Assembly: GCA_963744145.1 (NCBI GenBank)
Contig: CAVUSO010000001.1
Location: 1,600,001-1,664,000, forward strand
DNA: 64,000 nucleotides
Direction of reading: 5' to 3'
From: an uncultured cyanobacterium
GTDB lineage: Bacteria > Cyanobacteriota > Cyanobacteriia > Cyanobacteriales > CAWUOF01
Shown: in pieces, positions 43,845 to 64,000 of the stretch
Numbering within the stretch: the stretch's first letter is position 1
How the letters are laid out: each line of letters starts with the position of its first letter
Position numbers and translations under genes: made by a program
Notes under the pieces: model-generated
Seen by the model: only the letters and a program-made list of their open reading frames with translations
The model's database searches: none
What the model was told of the DNA's origin: nothing

Positions 43845-44815
43845 CTATTTTTAAAAACCAATCAGTGAGTGCTCAACACCTGACGGTATCAAAGGTTAGG
43901 AAACAAGTGTTTAGTAAAAGAAATAATACCAATATATCGTGCTCAACACCTGACGGTATCAAAGGTTAGGAAACTTGCATTTAGCAATTAGGGAACTATC
44001 ACGCATATGTGCTCAACACCTGACGGTATCAAAGGTTAGGAAACCAACTCCATCCTGAACTATCCGAATGATACGATTGTGTGCTCAACACCTGACGGTA
44101 TCAAAGGTTAGGAAACTGGCAATTTCGCCAATTTGGTTGACCCAGTCAGCCGTGCTCAACACCTGACGGTATCAAAGGTTAGGAAACTTCCTTGCTCGTG
44201 ATAGGTTTGTTACCATTTTCGGGTGCTCAACACCTGACGGTATCAAAGGTTAGGAAACCTGCTTGACAATTTGTGGATAGTCGTGCATAATATATAGTGC
44301 TCAACACCTGACGGTATCAAAGGTTAGGAAACAAGTTTTCGTGCAGCAAAAATTAACCTACCGAGCCGTGCTCAACACCTGACGGTATCAAAGGTTAGGA
44401 AACAGCCCACCTAGATTCTACCGCTTCTAGTCCACCCTTGTGCTCAACACCTGACGGTATCAAAGGTTAGGAAACGCACTAGCCTGGTCCAAATCCCTAG
44501 AAATCGTTCGCTCGTGCTCAACACCTGACGGTATCAAAGGTTAGGAAACCTTCAAATCTTTTTCTGTGATCTGACAAACTCTCAACCATGTGCTCAACAC
44601 CTGACGGTATCAAAGGTTAGGAAACGAAAGTATAGCTCGGACATTCGGAAATATTTGAGGGTGCTCAACACCTGACGGTATCAAAGGTTAGGAAACTAGC
44701 TATCAGGAAGCTTCACCGCGGAGCTTGTAGATGTGCTCAACACCTGACGGTATCAAAGGTTAGGAAACCAATTAATCTTGTCTTTCTTTTTTCAACATAG
44801 AAGGTGCTCAACACC

Positions 44816-46288
44816 CAATACGGTTCGGTTAAGCTAAAAATCAGGTAAAATGAAAGTGTCACCTAAATGGAATGAGTAGGAATGCAGCTCAAAGAATTCA
44901 CTGTAATATCACCTGTGGTCGAATCAGGGATGATCCTCAAAGCGTTAGAAACAGCGATTCCATCGACAGCAATTGAAAAAGCCATTGAAGATACCAATAG
45001 AAAAGAGGAACGACAAAGAGCATTACCAACGCATCTGGTTATCTGTCTAATCATTGGGATGAGTCTATGGTCTAGGGGGTCAATGAGGACAGTGTTGAAA
45101 AATCTGGTTGATGGCTTAAATGAAGCATGGGTCAGAGTTAGTTATTATTGGCGAATACCATGTAAATCATCAATTACAGAAGCTAGACAGCGAGTAGGTG
45201 CAGGGGTAATGCGGCATCTGTTTCACATAGTAGTTAGACCACAGGCTACTAGGGAAACCCCAGGGGCTTTTTTAGGTGAAAAGCGAATTATGGCTGTAGA
45301 TGGAACAGTGTTTGATGTGCCAGATAGCGACACAAATGCCAGAGTATTTGGATATCCAGCTAGTCGTCCTGGAACTAGAGCCGCGTTTCCCAAGGTGCGT
45401 TTGGTTCTATTGATTGAAGCAGGAACACATTTAATTGTAGATGCCTTGATCTGCCCTTACCGAATCGGTGAGCGAGTCAGAGTGAAAAGGTTACTACGGT
45501 CAGTCACCACTGGAATGTTATTAATGTGGGATCGTGGATTGCATTCTTATGCAATGGTGCAAGCCACCTTGTCCCAAAAATGTGATTATTTGGGACGCAT
45601 CCCCAAAAATGTTAAATTTCCTGTGGAGCAGGTATTGGATGATGGTTCCTATCTCTCCTGGATTGCTCCCGACGGCAAGTCGAAAAAACAGGGCATGACC
45701 AAAATTATGGTTCGAGTCATTGAATACACTATTGATAATGGCGAAGCACAAACTTACCGTCTGATTACCAGTTTGACGGACATCGCTTTATTTCCAGCTT
45801 TATTATTAGCCACAGAATATCATCGTCGTTGGGAAGTTGAAAATACTATCGATGAATTGAAGGTTCATCAATTGGGACGTAAAACTCTGATTCGTTCTCT
45901 TCATCCCCGTGAAGTGGTTCAGGAAATTTATGGTTGGCTCCTCGGACATTGGGCGGTTCGTTCTCTCATGTTGACCGACGGCCACCTCTGCTCACATCTC
46001 CCCTTTACGATTGAGTTTTACTGGTACTCTCAATGTTGTCCGTCGTGCTATTCCCAAATTTCAGCGCCTTCAACCAGAAGAATTTCCCCTTTTTTTTAGT
46101 TGGTTGATCAGGGAAATTTTGGATGAACCAATTCCCAAACGTGAAGGTAGAAGTAACCCTCGTGTTATTAAAAAAACTCGCGCCAAATTTCCATCCAAGA
46201 AACCAATTCATAGAGGTCAGGGAGTTAAACATGAAACCCTCAATTTTTCTATCCTCAATACTGCTTAAAGCTTAACCGAACCGTATTG
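44816..46288 (+). mobile_element. IS4-family insertion sequence (1473 bp) inserted inside a CRISPR repeat
   Basis: 20-bp perfect inverted repeats caatacggttcggttaagct (44816-44835) / agcttaaccgaaccgtattg (46269-46288); 10-bp target duplication gctcaacacc (44806-44815, 46289-46298). Confidence 0.95.
44882..46268 (+). pseudogene. IS4-family DDE transposase with a frameshift near 45970-45980
   Basis: AVDGT, WDRG and the Y-(2)-R-(3)-E-(6)-K signature YHRRWEVENTIDELK; the C-terminus (ISPLRLSFTGTLNVVRR...NPRVIK) continues in another frame. Confidence 0.88.
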
Positions 46289-49200
46289 GCTCAACACCTG
46301 ACGGTATCAAAGGTTAGGAAACATTTGTAACAAAACAAATCGATAACTCATAGTTACGTGCTCAACACCTGACGGTATCAAAGGTTAGGAAACAACCAAC
46401 TGACTAGTAAACTTTTGCGGATCAAGTTGTGCTCAACACCTGACGGTATCAAAGGTTAGGAAACCTATCCAAAAATTTCTGACAATAATACTGGGTCAAT
46501 GTGCTCAACACCTGACGGTATCAAAGGTTAGGAAACTCATCTAGATTTAGGCTGGGAAACGTTTGTTTTACGTGCTCAACACCTGACGGTATCAAAGGTT
46601 AGGAAACTATCCAATGGATGGACATCCTTAATGTAACTGGGGTGCTCAACACCTGACGGTATCAAAGGTTAGGAAACTAATTCATCCGAAACTAACAATA
46701 ATTCCTTAGCTTGTTGTGCTCAACACCTGACGGTATCAAAGGTTAGGAAACACAAATCAGATGGAAAAACCAAAGCAGCTAGTCTTGCGTGCTCAACACC
46801 TGACGGTATCAAAGGTTAGGAAACTTGGAATTGACTAGATAGCAAGAATGAACATGACTATGTGCTCAACACCTGACGGTATCAAAGGTTAGGAAACAGT
46901 CCCAAGATGATACTTTTGCTGATGATATTTATCGGTGCTCAACACCTGACGGTATCAAAGGTTAGGAAACAGTCCTGATTTTACAGGAATTATTAATTAT
47001 ATAAAGTGCTCAACACCTGACGGTATCAAAGGTTAGGAAACTTTGGGTAACGAGTGGTTTATTCGGGATGTCGTACGTGCTCAACACCTGACGGTATCAA
47101 AGGTTAGGAAACACTTTTTTCGCTCGCACTTGGGGCAAGTTTTATAATCGTGCTCAACACCTGACGGTATCAAAGGTTAGGAAACGCTCGCAGCTTGGCA
47201 ATACAGTGATTCTTATATAATGTGCTCAACACCTGACGGTATCAAAGGTTAGGAAACCCCCAAGTCCGGACAATACTGCACTGGCACTAAGAATGTGCTC
47301 AACACCTGACGGTATCAAAGGTTAGGAAACTAGCTGATGAAGCTCATACAGTTTGTTTTTTTGCTGGTGCTCAACACCTGACGGTATCAAAGGTTAGGAA
47401 ACTAATTGTTCTATTTTGTTTTGTTTATCTTTCAACCGTGCTCAACACCTGACGGTATCAAAGGTTAGGAAACCAGGCAAAAACTTGTCTTTTTCCCAAT
47501 CATGTCTTAGTGCTCAACACCTGACGGTATCAAAGGTTAGGAAACTTGCCCCTAAATGCCATTCATTAGGTGGGTAATAATGTGCTCAACACCTGACGGT
47601 ATCAAAGGTTAGGAAACTTATACGCCCCATAATAGTTTTCTGGGGATTTTAACGTGCTCAACACCTGACGGTATCAAAGGTTAGGAAACACCTCCGGAGA
47701 GATGGGAAAAAATTCCTAATTATCATGTGCTCAACACCTGACGGTATCAAAGGTTAGGAAACGATTGGTCAGCAAGAGAAGCGGCGAAAAATGCTGCTGT
47801 GCTCAACACCTGACGGTATCAAAGGTTAGGAAACGTCGGATAGATGTGTCGAGCTTTTTCGCTCAGATGTGCTCAACACCTGACGGTATCAAAGGTTAGG
47901 AAACACTCATTTTGGAGAAAAGATAAAAATCTTAACTTGTGCTCAACACCTGACGGTATCAAAGGTTAGGAAACTTCAAACATTACCCACGATTAACGAC
48001 TGGGATATGGTGCTCAACACCTGACGGTATCAAAGGTTAGGAAACTGAGGAACTAATAGAAAGTAACGGATATGAAAGAACGTGCTCAACACCTGACGGT
48101 ATCAAAGGTTAGGAAACTGATTTGATAGCTAACGATCGCGACCGAATTTGGATGTGCTCAACACCTGACGGTATCAAAGGTTAGGAAACAATCATCAAGC
48201 GGAGAAACTAAGAGAGCTTTTAGCGTGCTCAACACCTGACGGTATCAAAGGTTAGGAAACAAGAGCAGCCCGTAACGAATCTTTGCCGTTATTACGTGCT
48301 CAACACCTGACGGTATCAAAGGTTAGGAAACTACTGCATTATCTGGAAAGCCTCGTAATCCATAAGTCGTGCTCAACACCTGACGGTATCAAAGGTTAGG
48401 AAACACTTGACACAAGTCATAAAGACGTGCCATGATGTCGTGCTCAACACCTGACGGTATCAAAGGTTAGGAAACGAAGTTCATCCTTCAAATTGGCTAA
48501 GGATTGATAAGGTGCTCAACACCTGACGGTATCAAAGGTTAGGAAACAGTTCCCGGAACTACAAGTATTATTTTAAATAGTCGTGCTCAACACCTGACGG
48601 TATCAAAGGTTAGGAAACGGTAATTTATTTGTACCATCTACCTTGTCATTATCGTGCTCAACACCTGACGGTATCAAAGGTTAGGAAACTCGCTTGTTCA
48701 AGAATACGATCGGTTATGGGGGAAGTGCTCAACACCTGACGGTATCAAAGGTTAGGAAACACAGAAATCGATCAACTCCGCCGCGAACGAGATAAGTGCT
48801 CAACACCTGACGGTATCAAAGGTTAGGAAACAAGGGTTCCTGCTGGTATCCGCTTTCAGCGAGATGTGCTCAACACCTGACGGTATCAAAGGTTAGGAAA
48901 CATGGGGTCGTAGGTGCTGGAGTTACAGCCGCGTTAGTGTGCTCAACACCTGACGGTATCAAAGGTTAGGAAACAATTACCTTGACTTTTAGTCCCAGTC
49001 CCATCTACCCGTGCTCAACACCTGACGGTATCAAAGGTTAGGAAACATGGCTTGTGCTTTCGCACTTGAGCTAAATGTTGCTGTGCTCAACACCTGACGG
49101 TATCAAAGGTTAGGAAACCGTCCTACGCCACCAGGACAAACACCCCCTCCGCTCGTGCTCAACACCTGACGGTATCAAAGGTTAGGAAACGCGAAAAAGA

Positions 49201-52200
49201 GCAGAAAATAATTTAACAAAACTTAAGTGCTCAACACCTGACGGTATCAAAGGTTAGGAAACTAGATTAAGTGCTTGCACAGTTTCTTGAGGTAAGTGTG
49301 CTCAACACCTGACGGTATCAAAGGTTAGGAAACGGTTCTTCCGCAGGCGTTTCCATCCCACTGGTGCGTGCTCAACACCTGACGGTATCAAAGGTTAGGA
49401 AACACTTGGAACTATTCACAATGGAAAAGAACCCTATACCGTGCTCAACACCTGACGGTATCAAAGGTTAGGAAACTAAAATCTACCAAATGGTTAGCTG
49501 CTTTCCACATTTGTGCTCAACACCTGACGGTATCAAAGGTTAGGAAACGACCAGTAGAAAAAAACTGGCTGCCGCTGCTGCATGTGCTCAACACCTGACG
49601 GTATCAAAGGTTAGGAAACTCTGCTAGCAAAAGTTTTATCATCTGCACTAATATTGTGCTCAACACCTGACGGTATCAAAGGTTAGGAAACTGGGAGATT
49701 ATTAAACAATCTCCCATTCACTTAGGTGCTCAACACCTGACGGTATCAAAGGTTAGGAAACTATGGCTTTGGAACCATCAATCAAAATGATTGTTTGTGC
49801 TCAACACCTGACGGTATCAAAGGTTAGGAAACCAGAGGTTAAGAAACGAAAACAAAAGCTAGATGTCGTGCTCAACACCTGACGGTATCAAAGGTTAGGA
49901 AACATTGATCGTGTGATTTATGCCCGCTTTGTTCTAGGAGTGCTCAACACCTGACGGTATCAAAGGTTAGGAAACTATCGAATTTTCGATAGTGATATTA
50001 ATTCCTGTTCGTGCTCAACACCTGACGGTATCAAAGGTTAGGAAACCAATAATGGAGGAGTAGCCGGAGAAAACGAAACTACTGTGCTCAACACCTGACG
50101 GTATCAAAGGTTAGGAAACTTACTTAAATGGCAATGTAAACATATTGCTGGTATAGTGCTCAACACCTGACGGTATCAAAGGTTAGGAAACCTCTCCCAT
50201 CTTAACTTCCCCAGTGGTCAGTTTCACGTGCTCAACACCTGACGGTATCAAAGGTTAGGAAACGAACAAAAATATCAGGGTGAACTGCCCATCACACCCG
50301 TGCTCAACACCTGACGGTATCAAAGGTTAGGAAACATTGAATTTGCTGCAACTGTTCAAGCAGATATTTACGTGCTCAACACCTGACGGTATCAAAGGTT
50401 AGGAAACTGCATCTAGATCGGATTGCGATCGCTGAATCAGAAGGTGCTCAACACCTGACGGTATCAAAGGTTAGGAAACTCGTGGTCAATCGCCATTTAT
50501 TGCGGAAGTACCATAGTGCTCAACACCTGACGGTATCAAAGGTTAGGAAACTGTTTGGCTGCATCAGTCCCCCCCTCTTTATCTCGTGCTCAACACCTGA
50601 CGGTATCAAAGGTTAGGAAACTTGAGAAGTTCCAGCCGGAATACTGGGAGGAGAATATTGTGCTCAACACCTGACGGTATCAAAGGTTAGGAAACAACTG
50701 AAGAAATTAGATACTTACCTCTCAGTGATTGTGCTCAACACCTGACGGTATCAAAGGTTAGGAAACTCGGGGGCAACTACCTAGGATTTTGCATTAAAGA
50801 TTTTATGCCTGACCGTGCTCAACACCTGACGGTATCAAAGGTTAGGAAACCTTCAGTTTGTTCAAGGGAATCTCTATCCGTCCCGTGCTCAACACCTGAC
50901 GGTATCAAAGGTTAGGAAACTCGAGCATCAGCTTATCAATATACCCAAGACCCGTCGGTGCTCAACACCTGACGGTATCAAAGGTTAGGAAACAATGTCA
51001 CAGCATGATACTCAGCCCGTTGATCTCAGAGTGCTCAACACCTGACGGTATCAAAGGTTAGGAAACTAAGAAAGGACTTGACTCTAACTCTGTTAGTTGA
51101 AAGTGCTCAACACCTGACGGTATCAAAGGTTAGGAAACTGTATCCTTTGGAAGAGATTTTGTACCTATATCCGTGCTCAACACCTGACGGTATCAAAGGT
51201 TAGGAAACCTGGACATAGTTCACTTACCTCTCTACAAAGGTAGTGCTCAACACCTGACGGTATCAAAGGTTAGGAAACAACAAGTCAATACCCATATCCG
51301 TGGTGGCAATATCACGTGCTCAACACCTGACGGTATCAAAGGTTAGGAAACTTTATACCCTTTTTCAGACGCATCCAGTGTAAACAGTGCTCAACACCTG
51401 ACGGTATCAAAGGTTAGGAAACTAGTGTTGCGTGACATGGGACTTCGCGAGTTTTTAGTGCTCAACACCTGACGGTATCAAAGGTTAGGAAACCAGTACC
51501 TTCAGCCTCTTCAGTCTCTAGAGCTTCTGGTGCTCAACACCTGACGGTATCAAAGGTTAGGAAACACGCAAAACGAAAAAAAACTGGAATTAATAATTTC
51601 GTCCTCAACACCTGACGGTATCAAAGGTTAGGAAACATAGTGAGTTGCAGATATGGACTATATCGGTGCCAGGTGCTCAACACCTGACGGTATCAAAGGT
51701 TAGGAAACTTCCCAGTATTCTTTCAGCTCTTCACTAACTTTACAGTGCTCAACACCTGACGGTATCAAAGGTTAGGAAACCAGATTAGTCGGGATACCAT
51801 AAACTGGTGTTGGTAAGGTGCTCAACACCTGACGGTATCAAAGGTTAGGAAACTTCTTGGACCGATGCAACCAGCACCAGCTGGTTACGTGCTCAACACC
51901 TGACGGTATCAAAGGTTAGGAAACGTTGAAGAAGGACCACAAGAACCAAAAAACACGATCAGTGCTCAACACCTGACGGTATCAAAGGTTAGGAAACATT
52001 GAGTGCAACATGTGATAAGTCATTACAGGTGACATCGTGCTCAACACCTGACGGTATCAAAGGTTAGGAAACGCTTGGAGCAAGTCAGGGTTCTAAACAA
52101 CAATAATGTGCTCAACACCTGACGGTATCAAAGGTTAGGAAACTGGGAACTTAGACGTGCAGCGGATAATCGAAAATATTTAGGTGCTCAACACCTGACG

Positions 52201-53340
52201 GTATCAAAGGTTAGGAAACACAAATGGCATTCTCATTTCTACGAATCTATACGGTAATGTGCTCAACACCTGACGGTATCAAAGGTTAGGAAACTTGGAT
52301 ATTGACGATATTGGATAATCAAAGTCCGGTGTGCTCAACACCTGACGGTATCAAAGGTTAGGAAACTCTTTCTACCATCGGAATACTTAATGCTATTACT
52401 TTGTGCTCAACACCTGACGGTATCAAAGGTTAGGAAACTATCGTGCGATTAATCCGTGAACTGGACTACACTATCAGTGCTCAACACCTGACGGTATCAA
52501 AGGTTAGGAAACCTTTGAAGCCAAGCATATTCCACAGCGTTTACCAAGTGCTCAACACCTGACGGTATCAAAGGTTAGGAAACTACCGCGCGAAATAAGA
52601 AGCCTAATTAATTGTACAATGACCTGTGCTCAACACCTGACGGTATCAAAGGTTAGGAAACCTGACTAATTGCAGGGATACACTAAGGAAGATACCGAAC
52701 AGTGCTCAACACCTGACGGTATCAAAGGTTAGGAAACAGCTAGCATTGACGTAACTTTATAACGTGCTGGGAAATATCGTGCTCAACACCTGACGGTATC
52801 AAAGGTTAGGAAACAAAGAACTTGGTATCCAGCAAATGCTTGCCGAATCTGGATAGTGCTCAACACCTGACGGTATCAAAGGTTAGGAAACTTACCCCCA
52901 ATCAGTGAAAAGACAGAGCGGTCAGAAAGAGTGCTCAACACCTGACGGTATCAAAGGTTAGGAAACATGCCTAGCTCTTTTGCATTACAAGAGTTATCGC
53001 AAGATGACGTGCTCAACACCTGACGGTATCAAAGGTTAGGAAACTACGATAGACGACCAGTACGGACGTAAATTATGTTTATGAGTGCTCAACACCTGAC
53101 GGTATCAAAGGTTAGGAAACTTGCTACTGGGACGGGCTATTTCTGCGGCGTTCATGTGTGCTCAACACCTGACGGTATCAAAGGTTAGGAAACATTTTAA
53201 TCTGGATAAGCATTACATGACAGTAATTGCGTGCTCAACACCTGACGGTATCAAAGGTTAGGAAACATGAACTTAAAGGCAGTTGGATACGCCAATAGCT
53301 TAGTGTGCTCAACACCTGACGGTATCAAAGGTTAGGAAAC

Positions 53341-53601
53341 CGCGATCGCTGAACATCTCATAGCATAAGCGTTTCTGGCATATTTTACAAGCATCACCAA
53401 TTTGGAAACTATAAAGCTAAAAAATTTAGGTGAAATACCCGTTAAGAGTGACCCTCTCATATACCAAAACCCTTATCTAGTCTAGGATTTACCATTTTGC
53501 AAGCATCTTACCTGGTTCCAAAACTACCTCGATCGCAGTCCAGACAACGGTTTTCAGCTTTAATTTATTCTGTAAAACCTCTACAAACAGCGATCCTTGC
53601 A
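53341..53601 (-). promoter_or_regulatory. CRISPR leader
   Basis: Non-coding 261 bp between the cas2 stop and the first repeat; contains the repeated motif attttRcaagcatc. Confidence 0.8.
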
Positions 53602-53895
53602 TCAGATAATTCGGTATGCTTCCTCTACTAAAGGCCAAGCTTGAGGACGATTATACAGATGTATTCCCTCAACACAGCGATTACATAGACGAATCAAAAG
53701 TAAGCTATCCTTAATATCTAAAACTTGCTCTAGTTCCCATCGTAGTTTCTCCCGTTCTCGCTGGCTTAACCAACAGCGAAAAATAGAGTATTGGATTCTT
53801 TCACCGTAGCCTTTAAGTAGTTTGTAAGCCTTACGCCAGCGTTTGGAGTCCCGAATATCGTAGGCTACCAGATACCAGTTTTGGGATTCAGCCAT
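53602..53895 (-). CDS. cas2: CRISPR-associated protein Cas2
   Basis: YLVAYDI, RIQYSIF, DSL. Confidence 0.96.
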   Translation of the reverse strand: MAESQNWYLVAYDIRDSKRWRKAYKLLKGYGERIQYSIFRCWLSQREREKLRWELEQVLDIKDSLLLIRLCNRCVEGIHLYNRPQAWPLVEEAYRII

Positions 53896-53904
53896 AATCT
53901 TACC

Positions 53905-55569
53905 TCATCGCATAACTAACTGACCAAATAATCCGCCTTCACCGTTCCACTCCTTTTCCAGCAACCGTACCTCTAGCTCCAATAGACGACGGTAAGTCAG
54001 GGAATAGCCTGTAGCTGGATGTTTCCAACTTTCTTGCTTACGACGTTCATATAGGCTAACCAACTTGTGCCGTCCTGGCTCACTTAACCATACCTGTTCA
54101 CCTCGTATGGTAAAATCTGCCTGCGCGTCCCACTGACCGCGATTGACTGCACCCATTACAATCACATCCACCAAAGGCACCCGAAAAACTTCCATCAAAT
54201 CCAGTGCTAGAGGTGCAGCCTGAGAGCGCGGTTGATGATAAAAACCCAATGCAGGTTCTAATCCCACAGTCAGAATACTATTCATCACATCTTTAAGCAG
54301 GAGTGCATAGCCAAAACTCAGCAGAGCATTAAATCGGTCTTTGGGTGGACGGCGATTGCGACCATTAAAATGTAGTTCTGGATTAACTTCTGCGGAAATC
54401 AGACAGGGCAATGCCCCAAAATACAAAGCAGCCAAATTGCCTTCCAAGCCTAGTAGAGATTCCAAGGACTTAGCTTTGGGAACTTGTTTAAGGATAAGTC
54501 GCATCTGAGCGATCGCCCGTTTCAAAGCCTCTGGTGCTGGTTTAACTCCTCTTGTCCCTCGCATCAAAAATTTCCGCTGCCCCTGACCGCGACAGCTCAC
54601 CAGTTTGCAAGCTAGCTCCAAACAAGTATTGGAATTGCTCAAAGCCTCATACTGGCGAATACGACGCTGGATACTACCTTGTCGAGAATCAAAGCTACCA
54701 ATATAACGCCCTCCTCCAGAGATAAAATGCACACCAATACCCTGGTCAGTACAAAAGTGTAAGGCTTGAGTAGAGATTTGGGAAAAGCTGTGCAGCACTA
54801 ACTGTCCTACCTGATGGGCAGGAATAGTTTCTACTGGTTGAGCGCGACGGACAATTTTGAGCTGTTCTCCAGTGCGCCCAACACTTGTACCGGGTTCAAG
54901 AATATGGATTACCTGGCGATCGTCATCTGCTGGAAATAAGCGAATCGTTTCCTGCTCCTGGTTATGGGCAAGTCGGGCTTCTTCTGGAAGACAAACCGGA
55001 GCTAAAGAACAGCGGATACAAAGCCGTTCATTATCTGTGACGGGTGGACGACAAGAAGACTGTCTGATTTCTCGCGCTTGTTCGATCGCAGCTTTAACAC
55101 TTGCTCGTCCTTCATCATCAAGAGGTACATGCACCAGTACATTATCAGCATGATAACGGATACGACCTTCTTGGATAGGGATATTCAGGGCTGATTCCAG
55201 CAAACAAGCATAAGCAAGAACTTGAATGCGATCGCTTTCCCAAGCTTGGGGTTGCTTATTCTCATCTCGGTGACAGCGACCACGTTTGTGTTCATAGGGA
55301 ATAGTTTGTCCATCACGAGTACGGAGAGCATCGAGCCGACCACGTAAACCTAGTTCTTCACTTTCAAGAAATAATTCTTCCCACTCTTCATCTTCTTTTT
55401 TTTCAATTTCAACGTGCAGCCTACGTCCGGCAAAAACAGCCGCATCTTGCGTGTAAAGTTCTTCGACTTCTTCGAGATAGAATAGACGAGGACAATAAGC
55501 TAAAGCATGAAGGGCAGAGACGCGAATAGTAGCTGGTGAAACATCAATTTCAGGCGCAAACATAATCAT
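53905..55569 (-). CDS. cas1: Cas4-Cas1 fusion (I-MYXAN type)
   Basis: Cas4 part: YCPR, G.LD, EHK, QVLAY, CIRCSLAPVC. Cas1 part: LLGLEG, RRPPKD..NALLSFGY, GFYH, LALDLME. GAGG-N5-ATG start at 55569. Confidence 0.95.
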   Translation of the reverse strand: MIMFAPEIDVSPATIRVSALHALAYCPRLFYLEEVEELYTQDAAVFAGRRLHVEIEKKEDEEWEELFLESEELGLRGRLDALRTRDGQTIPYEHKRGRCHRDENKQPQAWESDRIQVLAYACLLESALNIPIQEGRIRYHADNVLVHVPLDDEGRASVKAAIEQAREIRQSSCRPPVTDNERLCIRCSLAPVCLPEEARLAHNQEQETIRLFPADDDRQVIHILEPGTSVGRTGEQLKIVRRAQPVETIPAHQVGQLVLHSFSQISTQALHFCTDQGIGVHFISGGGRYIGSFDSRQGSIQRRIRQYEALSNSNTCLELACKLVSCRGQGQRKFLMRGTRGVKPAPEALKRAIAQMRLILKQVPKAKSLESLLGLEGNLAALYFGALPCLISAEVNPELHFNGRNRRPPKDRFNALLSFGYALLLKDVMNSILTVGLEPALGFYHQPRSQAAPLALDLMEVFRVPLVDVIVMGAVNRGQWDAQADFTIRGEQVWLSEPGRHKLVSLYERRKQESWKHPATGYSLTYRRLLELEVRLLEKEWNGEGGLFGQLVMR

Positions 55570-55590
55570 GAATACCTCAAGGATAAGAAT

Positions 55591-55626
55591 TAGGTAAGCG
55601 CCCAAAGGCATCAAAGATTAAGGGGA
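55591..55626 (-). repeat. Solitary degenerate CRISPR repeat
   Basis: 20/36 ungapped identity to the array repeat (12/14 at repeat positions 17-30); hairpin retained with a compensatory A-U to G-C change. Confidence 0.7.
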
Positions 55627-55673
55627 TTTTTGATAACGTTTTGCCGTATCAATAGTGCAATTAAACTCTGTGG

Positions 55674-56372
55674 CTAGTCTGGTTTTTTAGGTGTCCATAT
55701 CCAAGCATTACTTGGTGGATATATAGACGGTTCAACAATGGGTGCAAATAGGTAATTCGTGGTTTTACTATTATCAAGGCGATCGATACCTACAGTCAAT
55801 CGATGCGATCGCTTACGTGGTGCTGAATCAATTTCCATCTTTTCATACCAGTGAGTTAATGGTGGGTGATCAACAATATCAATTCGATCAAACAGGAAGT
55901 TATTGTCCCCTGCAAATGGCATACCGTATCGGCGATCATTTAGTTCACCTCGTAAACCTTGACGAATGCGATCAAATAAGCCGTCAAATTCACAAATACC
56001 GATGATCATATCTAAACCAACCAGTAACTCTCTCCGCACAGGTACAATCCAATACTTAGCACCATGTGTTTTTATTTTCAATTCCTTCCCCGAAGCTCCG
56101 ACAGGATAACTATGAAGCTGTTGATAAAGGGTGCATATTTCACTTTCCGAACCATCAACTGCACCGATCGCTAACTGCAAATGGGGAATATCTGAACAAA
56201 TTTGGGTTGTTGGTTTATCCAACCCTGTTCGCATTTCAATCCCTGCCAGATTTAGCACTAAACCCAAAGCAGCAGATGGAGGCATGATCGGCATTGTTGA
56301 GCGATAAACACCAGCTTGAAAACCACGATAGGCAGCAAAGGGTGCACGAACGCGCAACCACATACAATTCAT
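55674..56372 (-). CDS. cas5: Cas5 (DevS/Cmx5 type)
   Basis: LRVRAPFAAYR...PPSAALGLVLNLAG, LYQQLHSYPVG, RYGMPFAGDNNF. Confidence 0.92.
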   Translation of the reverse strand: MNCMWLRVRAPFAAYRGFQAGVYRSTMPIMPPSAALGLVLNLAGIEMRTGLDKPTTQICSDIPHLQLAIGAVDGSESEICTLYQQLHSYPVGASGKELKIKTHGAKYWIVPVRRELLVGLDMIIGICEFDGLFDRIRQGLRGELNDRRYGMPFAGDNNFLFDRIDIVDHPPLTHWYEKMEIDSAPRKRSHRLTVGIDRLDNSKTTNYLFAPIVEPSIYPPSNAWIWTPKKPD

Positions 56373-56381
56373 TACATTCTC

Positions 56382-57269
56382 CTAACCTAAAAATTCCTTC
56401 GCGATTTCAATTAGCAACTTTTGCGGATTTTCGTATAACTTGGCACCAGCATCTCCGTTTTCTAAACGTTTCCGTTCTTCAGCTTTCATATTGCGAACAA
56501 TCTCACCACCAATCCAAAACTCATTAGGTGGGAGATCTTCAGAATTCAATCGGGACAATTCAGGAAAGTTTCCAGTTTCATCAAAACCATAGGTATTAAA
56601 TCCTGCCACAAGACAAGGAGTAAGACGTGCAATAATACTCTTAGGAGCCATTTCGTAATAACTACGTGCGTGACCACCTGCTACATCTGAGAGTTCACTA
56701 ATTGCCTTAAGTAAAGCCTTTACCCAATTAGGCTGATCTTTACAGTCATTGTAAGCGAGAGCAAACGGATACTGATAAGCTGTATGAGAAATCTCACGAT
56801 GCAAAAGTGCCGAAGTAGATGAGTTTTTCCAAGGGCTATTTCCTGCATTGAGGGGAGATTGATGAAAAGTAGCATCAAATCGATAGGGATTTAAAGCTAG
56901 AGCCATATTCATTCGTAGAATACTATCGCGCTTTGGTGGCAATCCTTTGTTCTTTTTAATAGCATCATTATCTGCAACCATGAAGCCGAACAAGAAATCA
57001 TCAGCATATTTAGTAGCATTAGGGAATTCTTGAAACTCAACAGCAAGTTGGTCTTGATCATGCAAGCGTCGGCGGTTAGATGGTAAACCTGCGGCAATCA
57101 ACATTTCGCGCAAAGCATTACGCATAGACTCAGGACTGATGACGGTGTATTCCTTTTTGTCTTTCACAATTTTCTGGAGAACAGTACGGTTTTCTTCGCT
57201 TTCACCACGATAATTAGAACTTGGTGCAGCATAGGTGAGAATAGTTGCAAATAGATTCTTGTTAGACAT
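56382..57269 (-). CDS. cas7: Cas7 (DevR/Cst2 type)
   Basis: NYRGESEENRT.LQKI, ISPESMRNALRE, DDFLFGFM, VAGGHAR. Confidence 0.93.
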   Translation of the reverse strand: MSNKNLFATILTYAAPSSNYRGESEENRTVLQKIVKDKKEYTVISPESMRNALREMLIAAGLPSNRRRLHDQDQLAVEFQEFPNATKYADDFLFGFMVADNDAIKKNKGLPPKRDSILRMNMALALNPYRFDATFHQSPLNAGNSPWKNSSTSALLHREISHTAYQYPFALAYNDCKDQPNWVKALLKAISELSDVAGGHARSYYEMAPKSIIARLTPCLVAGFNTYGFDETGNFPELSRLNSEDLPPNEFWIGGEIVRNMKAEERKRLENGDAGAKLYENPQKLLIEIAKEFLG

Positions 57270-57289
57270 TGTTTTTCTCCTGTAATTAA

Positions 57290-57667
57290 TTAGCTGTTAG
57301 CTGAAAGAGCAAGCATGGTCAAAGTACGCACTTTGTCTGTATCTTCATAGAGATCGCGAGTGAGTTTTTCAAAACTTTCCTCATTCATTCTTCGCTGTGG
57401 TACAGAACAAAGGGTAGAAGCAAAGTAATTGATAAAATCTGACTTTTCGGTACGGCTACGAACTTCGAGAAAAGCTGATTTAGCAATCTTGACTTTCTTC
57501 TCACGATATTCACTTTCTTTCGGTGAACCTTGTACATCCTTCCACTTAAGTTGATATTTACTATCCAACTTAGTCAATACATAGGATTGCACTAATTTGT
57601 ATATGAGTTTCTCACAAGAGTATTCGGAAACTTCAAGATCGGGATTTTGTTCTGTTTCTTCGGTCAT
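57290..57667 (-). CDS. cas11: Putative Cas11 small subunit from an internal in-frame start in cas8 (125 aa)
   Basis: GAGGTG-N7-ATG in frame at cas8 codon 424 (MTEETEQNPD...), preceding a helical C-terminal domain. Confidence 0.7.
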   Translation of the reverse strand: MTEETEQNPDLEVSEYSCEKLIYKLVQSYVLTKLDSKYQLKWKDVQGSPKESEYREKKVKIAKSAFLEVRSRTEKSDFINYFASTLCSVPQRRMNEESFEKLTRDLYEDTDKVRTLTMLALSANS

Positions 57668-58936
57668 ATTTTCCACCTCATATTTGAATGATTCGCGAAC
57701 ATCATGACAGAAATAATCATTTGCCATCGTTTGTTCATAGGAAATAGTACATAGTAGCGAATCAAATCCTATATACCAAGCTTTATTACTTACTAGATTG
57801 AGCAATCTTTGGCGGCGAAATGTAGCGTGCCACAAATTGTTTCGGATGTCTCGATACTTATCAATCCATTCTGGTTCTGGTGGATCGAGCCTTATTGTAC
57901 CGAGAATGCGAACATTGTTACCTTGCTTTTCAGCGTGAATTACATCCACACCCATTACCAAATCACCGATGCTAGTTTCTAATCTAGAAACACGATCTCG
58001 CAATCTAGCCATCATATCTAAGGCTCCTTCTACCGCTAAATCAACTACAGCGTCACGAGGGCGATAGCCTGTAATTTCACTTCCGCGTTCTTTCAATAAC
58101 TCGAAAAATTCATCACAGAATGTTTTTAACTGTGCAATATCAGGAATAGCGATCGCATAGCCAACAAAATCGCGCTTACCTTCGTTGTTAATTACGGCTG
58201 GTATATAGATAGAAACTGCAAATACCCAAAAATGCAAAAGGAATTGATATCTTGCCCGATCCTTAAATGGTACATTTTCAGGATTACTAGCTTGCGCTCC
58301 TAAATAATAGGTACTCGGTAAGTCAACTGTAAACTCAGAAGGCTGTAAAAGTTCTTGCCAGATTTTATCAGCATCTTTGGTATAATAGTGACCCAAGGGC
58401 AAATTTACCCTTGATTCATAGGGTAATCGCGTGCTTGGAACACCGCGCAAAATACTCCAGAGCATATCTCGCCAAAGTTTAATCCACTTACCGCGATCGC
58501 CTTCAGGATCTGCATCAGCAATAAATGCACCTTTTGGCACAACTATCGGATAAATATAGACTTTTTTCTTGACAGGATTACCTTTTTTATCAACATCGTC
58601 TTTTTCTTCTTCTCGCAAATAAGGAATAACTTCCTTAGTACGAGAATTTTTCAAAACTTGCGTCCGTTCTTGTTCTTCCTCATTTGCAGCATAAACCTCA
58701 TTGAATAGAGCTTGTAAACCTAGTTGGTTAATTCGTAAAGTAACTGAGCGATCGCTTAAATGCTCAGTTTCACAAATTGCAATTCCATCCTGTTTCCATA
58801 GCTCAAAACGATTTAACCACCGCACCATCAAAACCAATCCTGCTAAACCAGCGCGATGCTGTGATGATGGCAACTCCGCCAAAGAATAGGTAAGATCCAA
58901 TACGTCAATATGTGTATTGATCTTTTTCTTAGCCAA
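57290..58936 (-). CDS. cas8: Cas8 large subunit (Cmx8 type)
   Basis: L.YSLAELPSSQHRAGLAGL, KW.KLWRDMLWSILRG, FLLHFW, RTLTMLALSA; TTG start with GGAGGAG; lies between cas3 and cas7. Confidence 0.92.
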   Translation of the reverse strand: MAKKKINTHIDVLDLTYSLAELPSSQHRAGLAGLVLMVRWLNRFELWKQDGIAICETEHLSDRSVTLRINQLGLQALFNEVYAANEEEQERTQVLKNSRTKEVIPYLREEEKDDVDKKGNPVKKKVYIYPIVVPKGAFIADADPEGDRGKWIKLWRDMLWSILRGVPSTRLPYESRVNLPLGHYYTKDADKIWQELLQPSEFTVDLPSTYYLGAQASNPENVPFKDRARYQFLLHFWVFAVSIYIPAVINNEGKRDFVGYAIAIPDIAQLKTFCDEFFELLKERGSEITGYRPRDAVVDLAVEGALDMMARLRDRVSRLETSIGDLVMGVDVIHAEKQGNNVRILGTIRLDPPEPEWIDKYRDIRNNLWHATFRRQRLLNLVSNKAWYIGFDSLLCTISYEQTMANDYFCHDVRESFKYEVENMTEETEQNPDLEVSEYSCEKLIYKLVQSYVLTKLDSKYQLKWKDVQGSPKESEYREKKVKIAKSAFLEVRSRTEKSDFINYFASTLCSVPQRRMNEESFEKLTRDLYEDTDKVRTLTMLALSANS

Positions 58937-61271
58937 GGTTTATCTCCTCCTGGTTTTTCGTTGAAAATCCCGATCGCTCATCATAATTACCTTCCCACTG
59001 AGCAACACCTAAATATTTTGGCAACCAACTTGGTTTTTCATCGGATGGGTTTACTGCTTGACGTGGAACGCTTATAATAAATCCGTCATAAGTTTGTTTC
59101 TTAGGCTTAGATTCAATACATTTCTTGACCTCATCAAGATCGCGATCTAAAATGCAAGGAAGAGCATACTCATCGGGATCACGGAAATTACCCATTGTGG
59201 CAAAATAACCACTTGTAAAGAATGATGGTAATCCATCGGCTGTTCTCTCTTCGTTGGCAAATTTCTCTAAAGCCTCAGCTAACTGCTTTTGACTGATATC
59301 ACCACTACCTAATTTATCAATAAAGGTTTTTGCAGTACCTAACTCTTTAGCCTCGTATGGCAAATCCTTTGGTGGTTTGTAAATATGTAGCATAGCCCGA
59401 AAATTATCACCTCTAGCCAAGTGACGATTAGCTCGTCCAAAACGTTGAACCAATGAGGATATTGGTGCAAGTTCAGTAATCAAAACATCAGCATCTAAAT
59501 CGAGGGACATTTCACAAACTTGTGTAGTTACAGCGATCGCCGACCGGCGATCGCCATCTTTTTGAAAAGCAAACGCTTTTACAGTATCCGCATGAACTTT
59601 TTGGCGATCCATCAATCGGAAGCGACTATGATAGGTCAAAACTTCCACATTCAATTCATCAGCCAACTTCTTGGAAATTGCCAAACAACGATCAACTGTA
59701 TTCACAACCCATAAAACTCTTTCACCTTGTCTATATGCCTGAATTGCCTTTGTAAAAGCATTCCTAAAACATTCTACAGGTTGAAGTCGATAGCGGGGGT
59801 GATTTTCTTTCTTTTCAAGGTCTTGCAGACTCTGGCGATCGCTTTCTGTTGGATAAACCTCTAACCCCAAATTCACAAGTTGTTTACGACGAGATGGGGG
59901 TAAAGTCGCAGTCATACATAAAACAGGGATATCGAAATGCTTGAGAAAAGCTATCAAACTATCAAACATCTTCAAATCGAAGCTATGGATCTCGTCAATA
60001 ATCAGAACGCTATCCGCTAAAGCAGGTAATAAACAGATACCACCATAATTATGTTCCATAAAGCCCAAAAATTGATCAACTGTTGCGCTAAAATACCGCC
60101 GCGACCAGAAACCTAAAGAAAACAAACGGTGATCACTTGTAAAGTCTTTTTCTTTCATTGATTCGGGTGGGTTAGAAGCGATTGCTTCCAGTTCATAACG
60201 GGCTGTACCCGTCACTAATGCTGCATCAGTTTCAGGTGCCCAACTCACATAATCTTTAAAACCCTCTGTAGCAGTACCGCGTGTGGGATAGAGAAAAATC
60301 ACTTTCCCAACTTTATAATGCTTAACCTGTTCCTCAGCCCATTTCCAAGCTGCAAGGGTTTTACCTGCACCGCAAGCTGCCAAAAGTAAAACTCGCGATC
60401 CTTTTTGCGCTGCTAATCTTTGAAATTCATCCCATTTGAAGCTACCTTTATCTTTGATTATTTTTTCAATACGAGGATTAATAATCTTTGTAGTGATATC
60501 TGCACTAGAAATATTATCACTATGGACAACATCTTCAATCCAATCATAAATATTTTTATTCTCTCTAACTAATCCAGAAGCAACCGCATCAGAGACAATC
60601 AGTCCTGCTTTTACCCCTAAAAGTAATCTTCTTCTTTCTTCGGTTATTTGACGCATTAGCTTCTTGGCTGTATCCATCCCTTCTGTCCGTGCTTTAGACC
60701 ATATAGGGTCATTTTGAGAGAAAGTAGAAAATGAAAGTTCAGGTGGTTTGTCAAGAGCCGCAATATTAGCAATTTCTTCCAAAATGCTTTTAACTTCATC
60801 ATGTAGCAAATAAAGCCGAACAGATCCACGAAGTTTATTTGGTTTTGCCCATTCGCGATCACCTTTGCTAGAAGCTTTTAAATGATGGGACAATACCGCT
60901 GCTGTTATAATTTCAACATCTAAAGGTGTTCGATTTAACCAAGAGCGTATTTGAGGTAAGTGTAGTATCAAAGCACTGATATGTTCGTGTCTGAAAGTCT
61001 GAGTGGAACCTTTTAATACAGCGTCATAGAATTCTTCATTCGCCTTTCCAACGTCATGAAATAAGGCTGCAATACGCAAATTCAAAAGAAATTTATGTTG
61101 CTCTTTCTCACTTGTTAACTGAAAAAAACGACACCAGTTTTGCCCCCAACGACCATCTAATCGAAATATTTGATGTGCAGATTTCTCTGTATCTAATAAA
61201 TGCTCTTGCAATGTAACAATGCGATCGCCAAGTTTACTTTTTGCTAAGAGTTGTTCTGGTAAGTTTGCCAT
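58929..61271 (-). CDS. cas3: Cas3 HD nuclease-helicase
   Basis: EHL..T, FHDVGK, RHE, SHH; Walker A CGAGKT, DEIH, MTAT, QRFGR.NR. Confidence 0.96.
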   Translation of the reverse strand: MANLPEQLLAKSKLGDRIVTLQEHLLDTEKSAHQIFRLDGRWGQNWCRFFQLTSEKEQHKFLLNLRIAALFHDVGKANEEFYDAVLKGSTQTFRHEHISALILHLPQIRSWLNRTPLDVEIITAAVLSHHLKASSKGDREWAKPNKLRGSVRLYLLHDEVKSILEEIANIAALDKPPELSFSTFSQNDPIWSKARTEGMDTAKKLMRQITEERRRLLLGVKAGLIVSDAVASGLVRENKNIYDWIEDVVHSDNISSADITTKIINPRIEKIIKDKGSFKWDEFQRLAAQKGSRVLLLAACGAGKTLAAWKWAEEQVKHYKVGKVIFLYPTRGTATEGFKDYVSWAPETDAALVTGTARYELEAIASNPPESMKEKDFTSDHRLFSLGFWSRRYFSATVDQFLGFMEHNYGGICLLPALADSVLIIDEIHSFDLKMFDSLIAFLKHFDIPVLCMTATLPPSRRKQLVNLGLEVYPTESDRQSLQDLEKKENHPRYRLQPVECFRNAFTKAIQAYRQGERVLWVVNTVDRCLAISKKLADELNVEVLTYHSRFRLMDRQKVHADTVKAFAFQKDGDRRSAIAVTTQVCEMSLDLDADVLITELAPISSLVQRFGRANRHLARGDNFRAMLHIYKPPKDLPYEAKELGTAKTFIDKLGSGDISQKQLAEALEKFANEERTADGLPSFFTSGYFATMGNFRDPDEYALPCILDRDLDEVKKCIESKPKKQTYDGFIISVPRQAVNPSDEKPSWLPKYLGVAQWEGNYDERSGFSTKNQEEINLG

Positions 61272-61922
61272 TTATTTAACCTCTTTCATTGGCATAAATA
61301 CACCGCAACCCATACGATGCTTACCACCCAATCCAGAAACCTGTAACTTAATCGAGTCTTCCTCACTTAAGCCCGATACTTCCAGCCCAAACCCTACTAC
61401 AGTATAGGTCTTGATTTTGATGGTCTTGCGATCTGCTTTCCCCTCAGTATTCAAAGGCAAAATTACCTCACCCATAACTCCCAAATCCGCTAATTGTAAC
61501 TTTGCCGCTTGCAAAAAACTCTCTGGTTCCTGATAGTTTTTGATAATAACAATCCGAGCGCGTAATCTCTCAGCAGGACGCAACATAAAAATTTGCGGAA
61601 TACCCAATTGAATTGAATGCCCCCCAATAGTTAACCGTTTTCCCGCCAAGTGATAAATCGTAGGCATACACTCATAGGGCAACCGAATGCGTAAATGCGA
61701 TCGCTCGGTCAAAAAAATCTGGCCTTGCTTATCCGGAATTCCAGCAATTGTGAGAATACTCAAACCATCTTGCTGGTGAATTTGGGGAGCTAAATGAGCG
61801 ATCGCGCTATACAACCCATAACCATGATCGGCGGGAAGCGTCTGCCCAACTACTCCAAAACTCAACTCCACACAAGGCAAACTACCTAACTGTGTAACTG
61901 AACCGTATTCATTTGCCAGCAT
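61272..61922 (-). CDS. cas6: Cas6 (Cmx6 type) crRNA-processing endoribonuclease
   Basis: LPADHGYGLYSAI and C-terminal G-loop GLGGKHRMGCGVF. Confidence 0.93.
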   Translation of the reverse strand: MLANEYGSVTQLGSLPCVELSFGVVGQTLPADHGYGLYSAIAHLAPQIHQQDGLSILTIAGIPDKQGQIFLTERSHLRIRLPYECMPTIYHLAGKRLTIGGHSIQLGIPQIFMLRPAERLRARIVIIKNYQEPESFLQAAKLQLADLGVMGEVILPLNTEGKADRKTIKIKTYTVVGFGLEVSGLSEEDSIKLQVSGLGGKHRMGCGVFMPMKEVK

Positions 61923-62904
61923 CCTTGTCTCCTAAAGAGTTTGAATAAATACTGTACATTTGCTTTATTTCTTCCTGAACCATCTGCACCAATTCTGGTG
62001 GAGCCTTTACCACTGCTCCCTTCCCATAGCCCAAAACCCACCGTTTTAGATCATTTATCCCCCGGACTACCATACACAAGGTTAATGACCCATCAGAATG
62101 TTCTTGGATCTTCTGTGTTGAATGCCAGCATCGCTCCCGGATGTACGGAGCTGTTGGTGCATCAAACCAAATAGCAACTGAGTGTTCTATTCCACCCGCT
62201 TCATGCTGGAAAATCATCGCCAGATGATCTTTTGCATTGAATAAAGGGTTTGGCACAAAAGTTGATTCCAATATCTGAAGTTGCTTAATCCGATCAACAC
62301 GAAACCAGCGAATCTCCTGACGGTTATGGCAGTAACCAATCACATAGGGATTAGTGCCACGATAAATATACAAAACATAAGGATCGAGCTTGCGTGTTGA
62401 AACTGTATCCCGACTAGCAGTGTAATAGGTCATCTCAACTGTTTTATGAATCTGACAAGCTTCTTCTAGCTGATGCCATATCTCTGGATTTAGGTCGATC
62501 TGTGCTCCGGCCCGAAACAAAATCCGCTCCTCTGCTAACTCTTGCAGATCAACCCATGTTTCCTCTGGCAGCCGCTCCTTCAACCGTTCAATCGCTGAAC
62601 GCAACTTCTCCGCCCAAACTGAACCAGCATAAGTTTCTAGCATCCGCGCTCCCAAAGTAAGAGCAAACAGTTCTCCTTGGGAGAGAGAAATGCTTGGTAA
62701 GCGCCACTGGGAATTAGTGTAATGAAAACCTTGTTGAGGATTATATGCCAATGGAGCACTGAAGCGATCGCGCAAAAACGCTATATCATTACGAACAGTA
62801 CGCTCACTAACTTCTAAAGTTAAAGCTATTTTGGCTGTTGTCGGTCGTTTTGCAGTCCGCAGCAGCTCATCAAGTTGCAATAATCTTTCTAAGTGACGAG
62901 ACAT
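61909..62904 (-). CDS. HTH-WYL(-WCX) transcriptional regulator heading the cas operon
   Basis: HTH LEVSERTVRNDI, WYL domain (R.LDPY, YVIGYC..R..IRWFRVDRI), WVLGYG...V..P..L; overlaps the cas6 start by 14 bp. Confidence 0.93.
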   Translation of the reverse strand: MSRHLERLLQLDELLRTAKRPTTAKIALTLEVSERTVRNDIAFLRDRFSAPLAYNPQQGFHYTNSQWRLPSISLSQGELFALTLGARMLETYAGSVWAEKLRSAIERLKERLPEETWVDLQELAEERILFRAGAQIDLNPEIWHQLEEACQIHKTVEMTYYTASRDTVSTRKLDPYVLYIYRGTNPYVIGYCHNRQEIRWFRVDRIKQLQILESTFVPNPLFNAKDHLAMIFQHEAGGIEHSVAIWFDAPTAPYIRERCWHSTQKIQEHSDGSLTLCMVVRGINDLKRWVLGYGKGAVVKAPPELVQMVQEEIKQMYSIYSNSLGDKDAGK

Positions 62905-62953
62905 AGACGAAATAAATTTAAGTTAATATAACTAAAACTTTAATGGAGCTACC

Positions 62954-62970
62954 CGGCAAAAACCTTGCCG
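62954..62970. promoter_or_regulatory. Inverted repeat, candidate WYL operator
   Basis: CGGCAA-aaacc-TTGCCG in AT-rich DNA 50-66 bp upstream of the WYL start. Confidence 0.5.
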
Positions 62971-63008
62971 CCTTCAGCAAATTTATAAGATTAATTCTTA
63001 GTAATTGA

Positions 63009-63058
63009 TAAAAAATAAACAGCCCAAAGCCCCTCCATAATAAAATGAAGGGGCTTTG
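63009..63058 (-). terminator. Intrinsic terminator of the rRNA operon
   Basis: Stem caaagcccct (63025-63034) / aggggctttg (63049-63058), followed on the minus strand by GTTTATTTTTT. Confidence 0.75.
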
Positions 63059-63070
63059 AGTGAAATAATA

Positions 63071-63189
63071 ACCTGGCACCGAGCTATTTTCCCAGGCAGC
63101 AACCCGCCAAGTATCTTCGCCGCAGCAGCGTTTCACAACTGAGTTCGGGATGGGGTCAGAGTGGGACCACTGCGCCAACAGCACCAGGA
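63071..63189 (-). rRNA. rrf: 5S rRNA
   Basis: Minus strand TCCTGGTG...CCCATCCCGAACTCAGTTGTGAAACG...GTGCCAGG; ends approximate. Confidence 0.96.
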
Positions 63190-63273
63190 AAGCTGTAGGA
63201 CTCTCAAAAGACAGAGACCTGAAGACTGCATAAAAAACAAGTCAAGAAGCGACATCGAAACCAAAAATTAGAG

Positions 63274-64000
<727 letters not shown>

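Follow-up and report, generated by a model that had tools for sequence, protein, structure and literature searches.

A degenerate CRISPR repeat, here called element R, lies between the last interference gene and the cas4-cas1 fusion gene of a cyanobacterial type I-MYXAN CRISPR-Cas locus. Its sequence marks it as a degenerate copy of a conserved, probably cis-acting RNA element situated in the 5′ untranslated region (UTR) of cas4-cas1 in cyanobacterial I-MYXAN loci, with a probable role in timing the production of the acquisition proteins. In our preferred reading, which is tentative and to which we give somewhat less than an even chance, R is the relic of a terminal repeat turned into a 5′-UTR switch of cas4-cas1, in which a repeat-type hairpin (fold A) competes with a helix over the ribosome-binding site (fold B) and a cut by Cas6 would unmask that site.

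The I-MYXAN locus

The stretch of DNA analysed here (the window, 64,000 nucleotides) carries on its minus strand a complete type I-MYXAN CRISPR-Cas locus, which runs from a WYL-HTH regulator at the operon head to the array (Table 1). The operon type had been assumed in a preliminary description of this DNA, and cmx6, cas3, cmx8, cas7, cas5, the cas4-cas1 fusion and cas2 were indeed found. The cas6 product, Cmx6, is the candidate binder or cutter of element R. A leader of about 260 nt separates cas2 from the array, whose repeat reads GTTTCCTAACCTTTGATACCGTCAGGTGTTGAGCAC in the window; this array is the only one of its repeat family in the genome, and it represents the source family of R. An IS4-family transposase gene (44882-46099, plus strand) lies inside the array and splits it into 13 and 98 repeats, and the repeat at 46287, which adjoins the insertion, has two bases altered. 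Directly upstream of the cas operon are a 5S rRNA gene (63071-63188, minus strand) and the 3′ end of a 23S rRNA gene (63273-64000, minus strand). A hairpin with a T-run is found downstream of the 5S rRNA, at about 63050-63000, and an 88-aa "ORF" (62918-63184), overlapping the 5S rRNA gene, is probably spurious.

Table 1. Positions of the cas genes, the array and the predicted elements discussed in the text.
Feature	Position in window	Strand	Remarks
Box GGCAAGGTTTTTGCCGG	62953..62969	minus	operon head, ahead of the WYL regulator gene; partly palindromic
WYL-HTH regulator gene	61909-62904	minus	heads the cas operon
cas6 (cmx6)	61272..61922	minus	TIGR02807, 245 bits; repeat-processing endoribonuclease
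cas3	58929-61271	minus	
cmx8	57290-58936	minus	
cas7	56382-57269	minus	
cas5 (Cmx5/DevS)	55674..56372	minus	last interference gene; stop codon 55674-55676
Second hairpin, UUGAUACG..CGUUAUCAA	55630..55652	minus	predicted; window-specific
Element R	55591..55626	minus	degenerate CRISPR repeat, 36 nt in register with the array repeat; 20/36 identity
Fold A hairpin, UGCC-UUUG-GGCG	55599..55610	minus	predicted, -4.5 kcal/mol, z -0.08
Fold B 3′ arm, UCCUUGAGGUAUUCAUGAU	55565..55583	minus	predicted to pair with 55617-55600 of R
cas4-cas1 fusion	53905..55569	minus	554 aa, ATG 55569; TIGR03983 cas1_MYXAN, 568 bits; TIGR00372 cas4
cas2	53602-53895	minus	
CRISPR array	43869..53340	minus	111 repeats; Rfam CRISPR-DR33, 35-37 bits, minus strand

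The space between the cas5 stop codon and the cas4-cas1 ATG measures 104 nt. The cas4-cas1 frame is open further upstream, through R, with a TTG at 55614 and an ATG at 55611, the latter within GATGCC. Both the homologues, which align from residue 1-14, and the Shine-Dalgarno sequence GAGG point to 55569 as the start. In most of the related loci, the ATG inside GATGCC is followed by a stop (ATG-YCG-TAA).

A degenerate repeat in front of cas4-cas1

Read on the minus strand, 55626-55591 is TCCCCTTAATCTTTGATGCCTTTGGGCGCTTACCTA. Aligned without gaps to its own array repeat, R is identical at 20 of 36 positions, namely at 17 of the 28 positions 1-28 and at 3 of the 8 positions 29-36, and it shares 21 of 36 with the repeat of locus L049. 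It begins 47 nt after the end of cas5 and ends 21 nt before the ATG at 55569. The sequence and coordinates of this element, its identity of 20/36, its distance to the start codon and the degeneracy of its 8-nt handle had all been given in the preliminary description, and each was confirmed. The conserved core of R, which corresponds to repeat positions 10-28, occupies 55617-55599, and its GAT begins 43 nt before the cas4-cas1 ATG.

Judged within the window alone, the likeness of R to the repeat is at chance level. The score of 20/36 is the highest outside the array, yet it is tied by 11 other positions (12 of the 108,628 scanned window positions). The likeness becomes significant by comparison: the core GATRYCNNNNGGYG has only 38 occurrences outside the array on both strands of the 7.7-Mb genome, and one of them, the R site, is at the very position that this element occupies in about 46 of 72 related loci. 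A strict regular expression for the core had no match in the genome outside the array, and the Rfam model CRISPR-DR33 gave none at the R site at E≤10, though it matches the array repeats.

R is not a functional repeat of the local array, because near-identity over the full length, including the 8-nt 3′ handle TTGAGCAC, is missing. Nor does it belong to a regular series of repeats and spacers, since the nearest array repeat is at 53340, and no true repeats precede it at spacer distance, cas5 ending 47 nt upstream. A search of the cas operon brought up no further repeat besides R.

The element is conserved among related loci

We compared 80 cyanobacterial loci with close relatives of the Cas4-Cas1 fusion (73-85% identity), 72 of which had a usable upstream region. 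In about 46 of these 72 I-MYXAN loci, the repeat core CCTNNGATGYCNNNNGGCG (consensus ACCTCTGATGTCGTAAGGCG) stands 39-61 nt before the predicted cas4-cas1 start. The regular expression for the core matched 50 loci, from which L053 and L064 (false matches), L060 (too far from the start) and L018 (where a nearer copy had been missed) were set aside. The tally by regular expression over the 72 loci was 46 with R only, 1 with both R and the promoter-type box described below (P box), 15 with the P box only, and 10 with neither. Conservation of R in about two-thirds of the cyanobacterial I-MYXAN loci examined means that many strains carry the element. The orthologous intergenic region itself was not found in 60 related genomes searched, where the two short matches (L091 and L092) were unrelated coding sequence.

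R stays at cas4-cas1 whatever lies upstream, be it cas5 (L037, L042 and L028), a gene of the Uma2 family (L007 and L032) or an array in the same orientation (L021-L023, L054, L062, L073 and others). The Uma2-family gene, a putative restriction endonuclease (PF05685), is located between cas5 and cas4-cas1 in Nostoc-type loci (2344-2922 in L007 and likewise 2344-2922 in L032), and in L007 and L032 R follows within about 20 nt of its stop codon. Two effector variants occur among the related loci, with either Cmx8, as in the window (57290-58936), or Cas8a1/Cmx1 (Csx13), for example at 8-1276 in L028; both share the adaptation module and R.

In a MAFFT alignment of 48 sequences including the window (A1), nine core columns are invariant, and the linker downstream varies in length and in sequence. 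When 45 distinct R elements were set against 41 distinct array repeats from the related loci, R was found to keep repeat positions 10-12 (CCT), 15-18 (GATG), 20 and 25-28 (GGCG), which are the positions that are near-invariant in the array repeats themselves. Positions 1-8 and 29-36 are not kept in R, and the 3′ handle is thus lost. The kept nucleotides fit a shared binding protein such as Cas6. On the strength of these sequence comparisons, R is a genuine repeat derivative, placed on the sense strand directly upstream of cas4-cas1 at a conserved position; the proposal that the R site holds a derivative of a CRISPR repeat is therefore borne out by the same element in about 46 of the 72 related loci.

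The origin of R is indicated by the loci in which an array directly precedes the adaptation genes. There are about 14 of them, and in each such array R is the last repeat, at spacer distance, which points to descent from a terminal repeat. In L054, the four array repeats nearest to cas4-cas1 carry up to 1-3 mismatches to the consensus, versus 0 in repeats further upstream. R resembles a degenerate terminal repeat in that it has the orientation of the array and is degenerate mainly at its 3′ end. It differs in that the window and most loci have no upstream array and keep R by itself, with a constant spacing to the cas4-cas1 start, and in that R has a matching anti-sequence at the ribosome site. 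We know of no ordinary terminal repeats with such a fixed start distance and an anti-sequence at the ribosome site.

The copy in the window agrees with the family core on the sense strand, except for a T in place of C at position 10 and a G at loop position 24. It thus reads TCT where 96-100% of the elements have CCT, and it has G for A in the loop; GATG, C20 and GGCG are intact. The T at position 10 is shared with L040 and L059. By its sequence, the window copy is among the most degenerate members and is a weak member of the family. A covariance model of the element (R1), built without the window, matches 55635-55564 over the full length of the element (27.6 bits, E 0.0026), with all 11 pairs aligned, 10 of them standard and 1 non-standard. 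This model is unspecific, as array repeats score about as high (best 28.5 bits).

The repeat-type hairpin

Fold A is a stem of 4 bp, UGCC/GGCG, closed by a 4-nt loop. The preliminary description had drawn this stem and loop, which do exist as a predicted structure, but the hairpin is no more stable than those of shuffled sequences (Table 1), and the fold of the whole intergenic region is equally ordinary compared with shuffles (z -0.37). Its further claim, that the stem had been kept by co-variation, fails: GATGCC/GGCG is the consensus of the family's array repeats, and the array of the window (GATACC/GGTG) is the odd one. It had also looked to an alignment of the related intergenic regions for signs of co-variation, and here the element itself turned out to be conserved (about 46/72 loci), yet the hairpin, which is 90% paired across the 48 sequences, shows 0 compensatory changes. 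As far as the sequences go, fold A would draw its support from conservation only. If Cas6 cleaves the stem at its 3′ base, the break would fall between 55599 and 55598.

A predicted helix over the ribosome-binding site

The bases directly before the cas4-cas1 start codon can pair with the 5′ arm and loop of the repeat hairpin, a complementarity that the preliminary description had not noted. In the window, the 3′ arm of this helix B contains the Shine-Dalgarno GAGG (55578-55575) as well as the start codon (55569-55567). The pairing takes the form GATGTCGTAAGG with CCTTACAGACAT in Nostocales and GATGCCTATAGG with CCTTGAGGCATC in others; in the window it is UGAUGCCUU.GGG with UCC.UUGAGGUAUUCA, reaching the AUG, with several G-U pairs. 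In most sequences, 0-6 nt lie between the end of the 3′ arm and the start codon. Folds A and B use the same nucleotides and are for this reason mutually exclusive.

In 41 of the 46 distinct sequences, the computed duplex of helix B was stronger than expected from 300 shuffled versions of the downstream part (p≤0.05); the mean z was -3.1. For the window the value was -12.9 kcal/mol (z -3.04, p 0.007, 300 shuffles), and the helix is present in the minimum free energy structure of the window's intergenic region. RNAalifold, run on the MAFFT alignment, returned only a 3-bp repeat hairpin, since some rows have their 3′ arm out of register; helix B was then specified by hand and counted with controls. 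On this unfitted alignment 84% of the cells are paired, and sliding the partner by 1-3 columns lowers the figure to 28-53%. Nineteen cells are changed on both sides, a number reached by 0 of 500 shuffles. Without the window, 88.5% of the cells are paired and 12 are doubly changed, again reached by 0/500 shuffles; the number of helix B pairs with double changes was reached by 181 of 500. Few events make up the covariation. On the Cas4-Cas1 tree, position 19 shows 4 changes, which yield 1 independent pair on supported branches, too few independent changes for a phylogenetic sign test. In the many loci with T19 in R and C19 in the array, the 3′ arm carries A and therefore matches R rather than the array, which bears on the idea of an anti-repeat acting in trans on arrays.

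Adaptation proteins are usually kept scarce. Helix B could have been selected by itself, as a translational attenuator that is independent of Cas6 and holds Cas4-Cas1 synthesis always low, the relic having served as raw sequence and no nuclease being involved. Helix B is the best-supported feature of the element, hairpin A is without covariation, and cleavage is here only deduced, all of which suits this explanation. We nevertheless regard it as unlikely. CCT at positions 10-12, G15, C27 and G28 lie outside helix B and are as conserved as in true repeats (C11 1.00, T12 1.00, G15 1.00, C27 0.91 and G28 1.00 among the 45 distinct elements), so that the helix alone is no explanation. The sequence of a simple attenuator would be free to drift as long as pairing was restored by compensation, yet in 45 distinct sequences the 5′ arm has remained repeat-like, and the loci with the P box do without a hairpin of this kind. 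That repeat nucleotides outside helix B are conserved is our main argument that a repeat-binding protein is involved, as the switch reading supposes.

We then considered the predicted effect of a cut. In modelled RNAs that start after G28, the mean predicted unpaired probability of positions -14 to +3 rises from 0.38 to 0.68, and it goes up in 43 of the 48 sequences. The window is an exception, as the predicted accessibility of its translation initiation region falls from 0.62 to 0.49 after the hypothetical cut. Moreover, when 33 nt of coding sequence are added to the window RNA, helix B is lost, and pairing of GGGCGC with GCGCCU at codons 5-6 wins. In these models the fold of the window copy is ambiguous.

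These results bear on a reading in which the window copy is an inert relic, a terminal repeat in decay that plays no role today and pairs only residually with the start, while the family may be functional elsewhere. The copy deviates at positions that are otherwise near-invariant, its identity to its own repeat is at chance level, and its helix B, with several G-U pairs, is outcompeted once coding sequence is included; nor does accessibility rise after the hypothetical cut. Even so, the duplex with the Shine-Dalgarno and start region still has a z of -3.0, GATG, C20 and GGCG are intact at the canonical distance, and the model built from other loci matches over its full length with 10 of 11 pairs standard; we consider inertness distinctly unlikely.

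Transcription context and the promoter box

In loci without R, a box, GGAAnnnTTTTTGCCGG, is found 62-97 nt upstream of cas4-cas1 (15 loci by regular expression, about 19 with variants). These loci include L004, L026, L049, L051, L055, L058, L061, L063, L064, L067, L068 and L071; the box also occurs in L081, at 8893-8915. In the window, the box (GGCAAGGTTTTTGCCGG) is found at 62969-62953, at the start of the operon and ahead of the WYL regulator gene. It is probably a promoter or operator, and perhaps the site of the WYL regulator. Next to the start of the P-box loci we saw no consistent hairpin (7/19 at p≤0.05). The plasmid pSYLB of Synechocystis sp. PCC 6714, from a plasmid collection, carries an I-MYXAN operon with a box-type leader and no repeat relic.

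The gap to the upstream gene has a median of 87 nt in R loci versus 165 nt in loci without R, and the short gaps in R loci leave little room for a promoter. A scan of the cas5/cas4-cas1 intergenic region in the window detected neither a sigma-70-like promoter nor a terminator. An own promoter of cas4-cas1 within this region was thus considered and rejected, the only promoter-like site being inside cas5 (55799-55770). A terminator reading was likewise dropped, since the helix is not followed by a U-run and 55400-55900 holds nothing that resembles a terminator. Two alternative controls of the adaptation genes appear to exist, namely an own promoter, or a repeat relic within a longer transcript. 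A role for R at the junction of interference and adaptation genes, as had been suggested before, is plausible.

The complementary arms of helix B are equally an inverted repeat in the DNA, and a WYL-HTH regulator heads the operon. A dimeric protein, such as this regulator, might accordingly bind the arms as an operator and control transcription into cas4-cas1. We hold this to be highly improbable, because the G-U pairs of the window and of other loci correspond to C-A mismatches when the opposite strand is read (GU occurs 5-6 times at one pair and UG 3 times at another), the two arms are anywhere from about 14 to 40 nt apart, and the box that is associated with I-MYXAN promoters has a different sequence.

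R is hardly a crRNA-like regulator

Standalone repeat-like regulators are established; as far as the parts of these sources that were available tell, they act in trans as guides on promoters (10.1101/2023.03.03.530964; 10.1101/2023.03.10.532045). The preliminary description had offered such a role for R as an alternative, in which a handle-like ATTGCAC, a 28-nt pseudo-spacer and R itself would give a small RNA guiding Cascade to repress a promoter, after the manner of CreR/CreA. According to the accessible parts of the same two preprints, mini-arrays of this kind are known in type I-B, I-E, I-F and V-A loci, and the layout in the window fits superficially. Yet this explanation is extremely improbable. 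In 53301-64000, the pseudo-spacer has no match beyond chance: its longest exact match to the cas locus is 10 nt, inside cas6, and at least 10 nt is reached by 82 of 200 shuffled spacers. ATTGCAC and the "spacer" are not conserved in the related loci, where the whole gap can be as short as 65 nt, as between cas5 and cas4-cas1 in L037 and L042. The two repeat-like parts of a CreR/CreA mini-array are not both present either, the upstream one amounting to the handle-like ATTGCAC of 7 nt. Finally, Cascade would need the 5′ handle from a downstream repeat only if another spacer followed R, and none follows.

The second hairpin, also noted beforehand, is indeed predicted in the window but was not seen in the other loci (72 upstream regions). 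It contains CGGCAAAACG, whose reverse complement CGTTTTGCCG resembles the core of the box in inverted orientation, a resemblance that may be due to chance.

A proposed model for a possible switch

We propose the following scenario for the preferred reading. R would derive from the leader-distal end of an array, being the final repeat of one that formerly stood immediately in front of the adaptation genes. The middle of this repeat (positions 10-28, with CCT, GATG and the hairpin) would have been kept, and the 3′ handle lost. Fold A would be the short hairpin by which Cas6 (Cmx6) recognises repeats in pre-crRNA, and fold B the longer helix formed by the 5′ arm and loop of the hairpin with 12-19 nt just before the start codon. 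If cas4-cas1-cas2 is co-transcribed with the upstream genes, as we suppose, fold B would mask the ribosome-binding site by default. Cas6 may then bind fold A as it emerges and cut at the 3′ base of the stem, at about 55599/55598; the cut would remove the masking arm, separate the adaptation mRNA from the interference mRNA and permit translation. The downstream fragment would be neither loaded into Cascade nor a crRNA, because the 5′ handle is missing.

The coupling of spacer acquisition to interference, and the means by which the risky Cas1-Cas2-Cas4 machinery is kept low, are poorly understood. One could imagine that Cas6 licenses adaptation: by cutting the repeat relic in the cas4-cas1 leader, it would let the acquisition proteins be made only where the processing and interference machinery is present. 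This stronger proposal is possible, though rather unlikely in our estimate. If true, it would amount to a protein-operated and irreversible RNA switch, a natural counterpart of the engineered Csy4 insulators, and the loci that lack R and have a separate promoter box would mark the junction between cas5 and cas4-cas1 as a general point of control.

Several known systems offer comparison. In synthetic biology, engineered Cas6/Csy4 hairpins are used to cut polycistronic mRNAs and to insulate translation. R resembles them as a Cas6-type hairpin between genes of one transcript, where cleavage would uncouple the downstream gene; the engineered hairpins are artificial, whereas R would be a natural counterpart to which a masking helix is added and in which cleavage is deduced. 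The 5′-UTR helices of riboswitch-like elements and RNA thermometers are similar too, in that an upstream segment pairs with the ribosome-binding region and an alternative fold competes for the same nucleotides. In R, the agent that stabilises or removes the competing fold would be a CRISPR protein nuclease and not a metabolite or temperature.

CreA/CreR, scaRNA and crRNA-like RNAs, as described in the portions of the sources at hand, share with R that they are repeat derivatives outside an array, conserved within a cas locus and put to regulatory use. According to the same portions, CreA/CreR and scaRNA differ in being trans-acting guides, directed by a pseudo-spacer to a promoter and usually built of two repeat-like parts. 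R has one repeat core and no targeted spacer, and its predicted action is in cis, through pairing with the start region. One of the preprints (10.1101/2023.03.03.530964) reports an enrichment in type I-B near cas6, and cas4 does not occur (0 occurrences) in the available part of its text. The literature consulted, including PMC12102369, PMC11237760 and both preprints in their available parts, does not describe the R element, and the supplements of the preprints may list such hits. If true, the reuse in cis of a Cas6 recognition hairpin within a cas mRNA, masking and unmasking a ribosome site, would be a different route of self-regulation.

Other observations

Apart from the CRISPR-Cas locus, the window contains six tandem units of about 126 nt at 36342-37045 (plus strand), which are 66-75% alike and look like a gene for a repeat-domain (WD40-like) protein.
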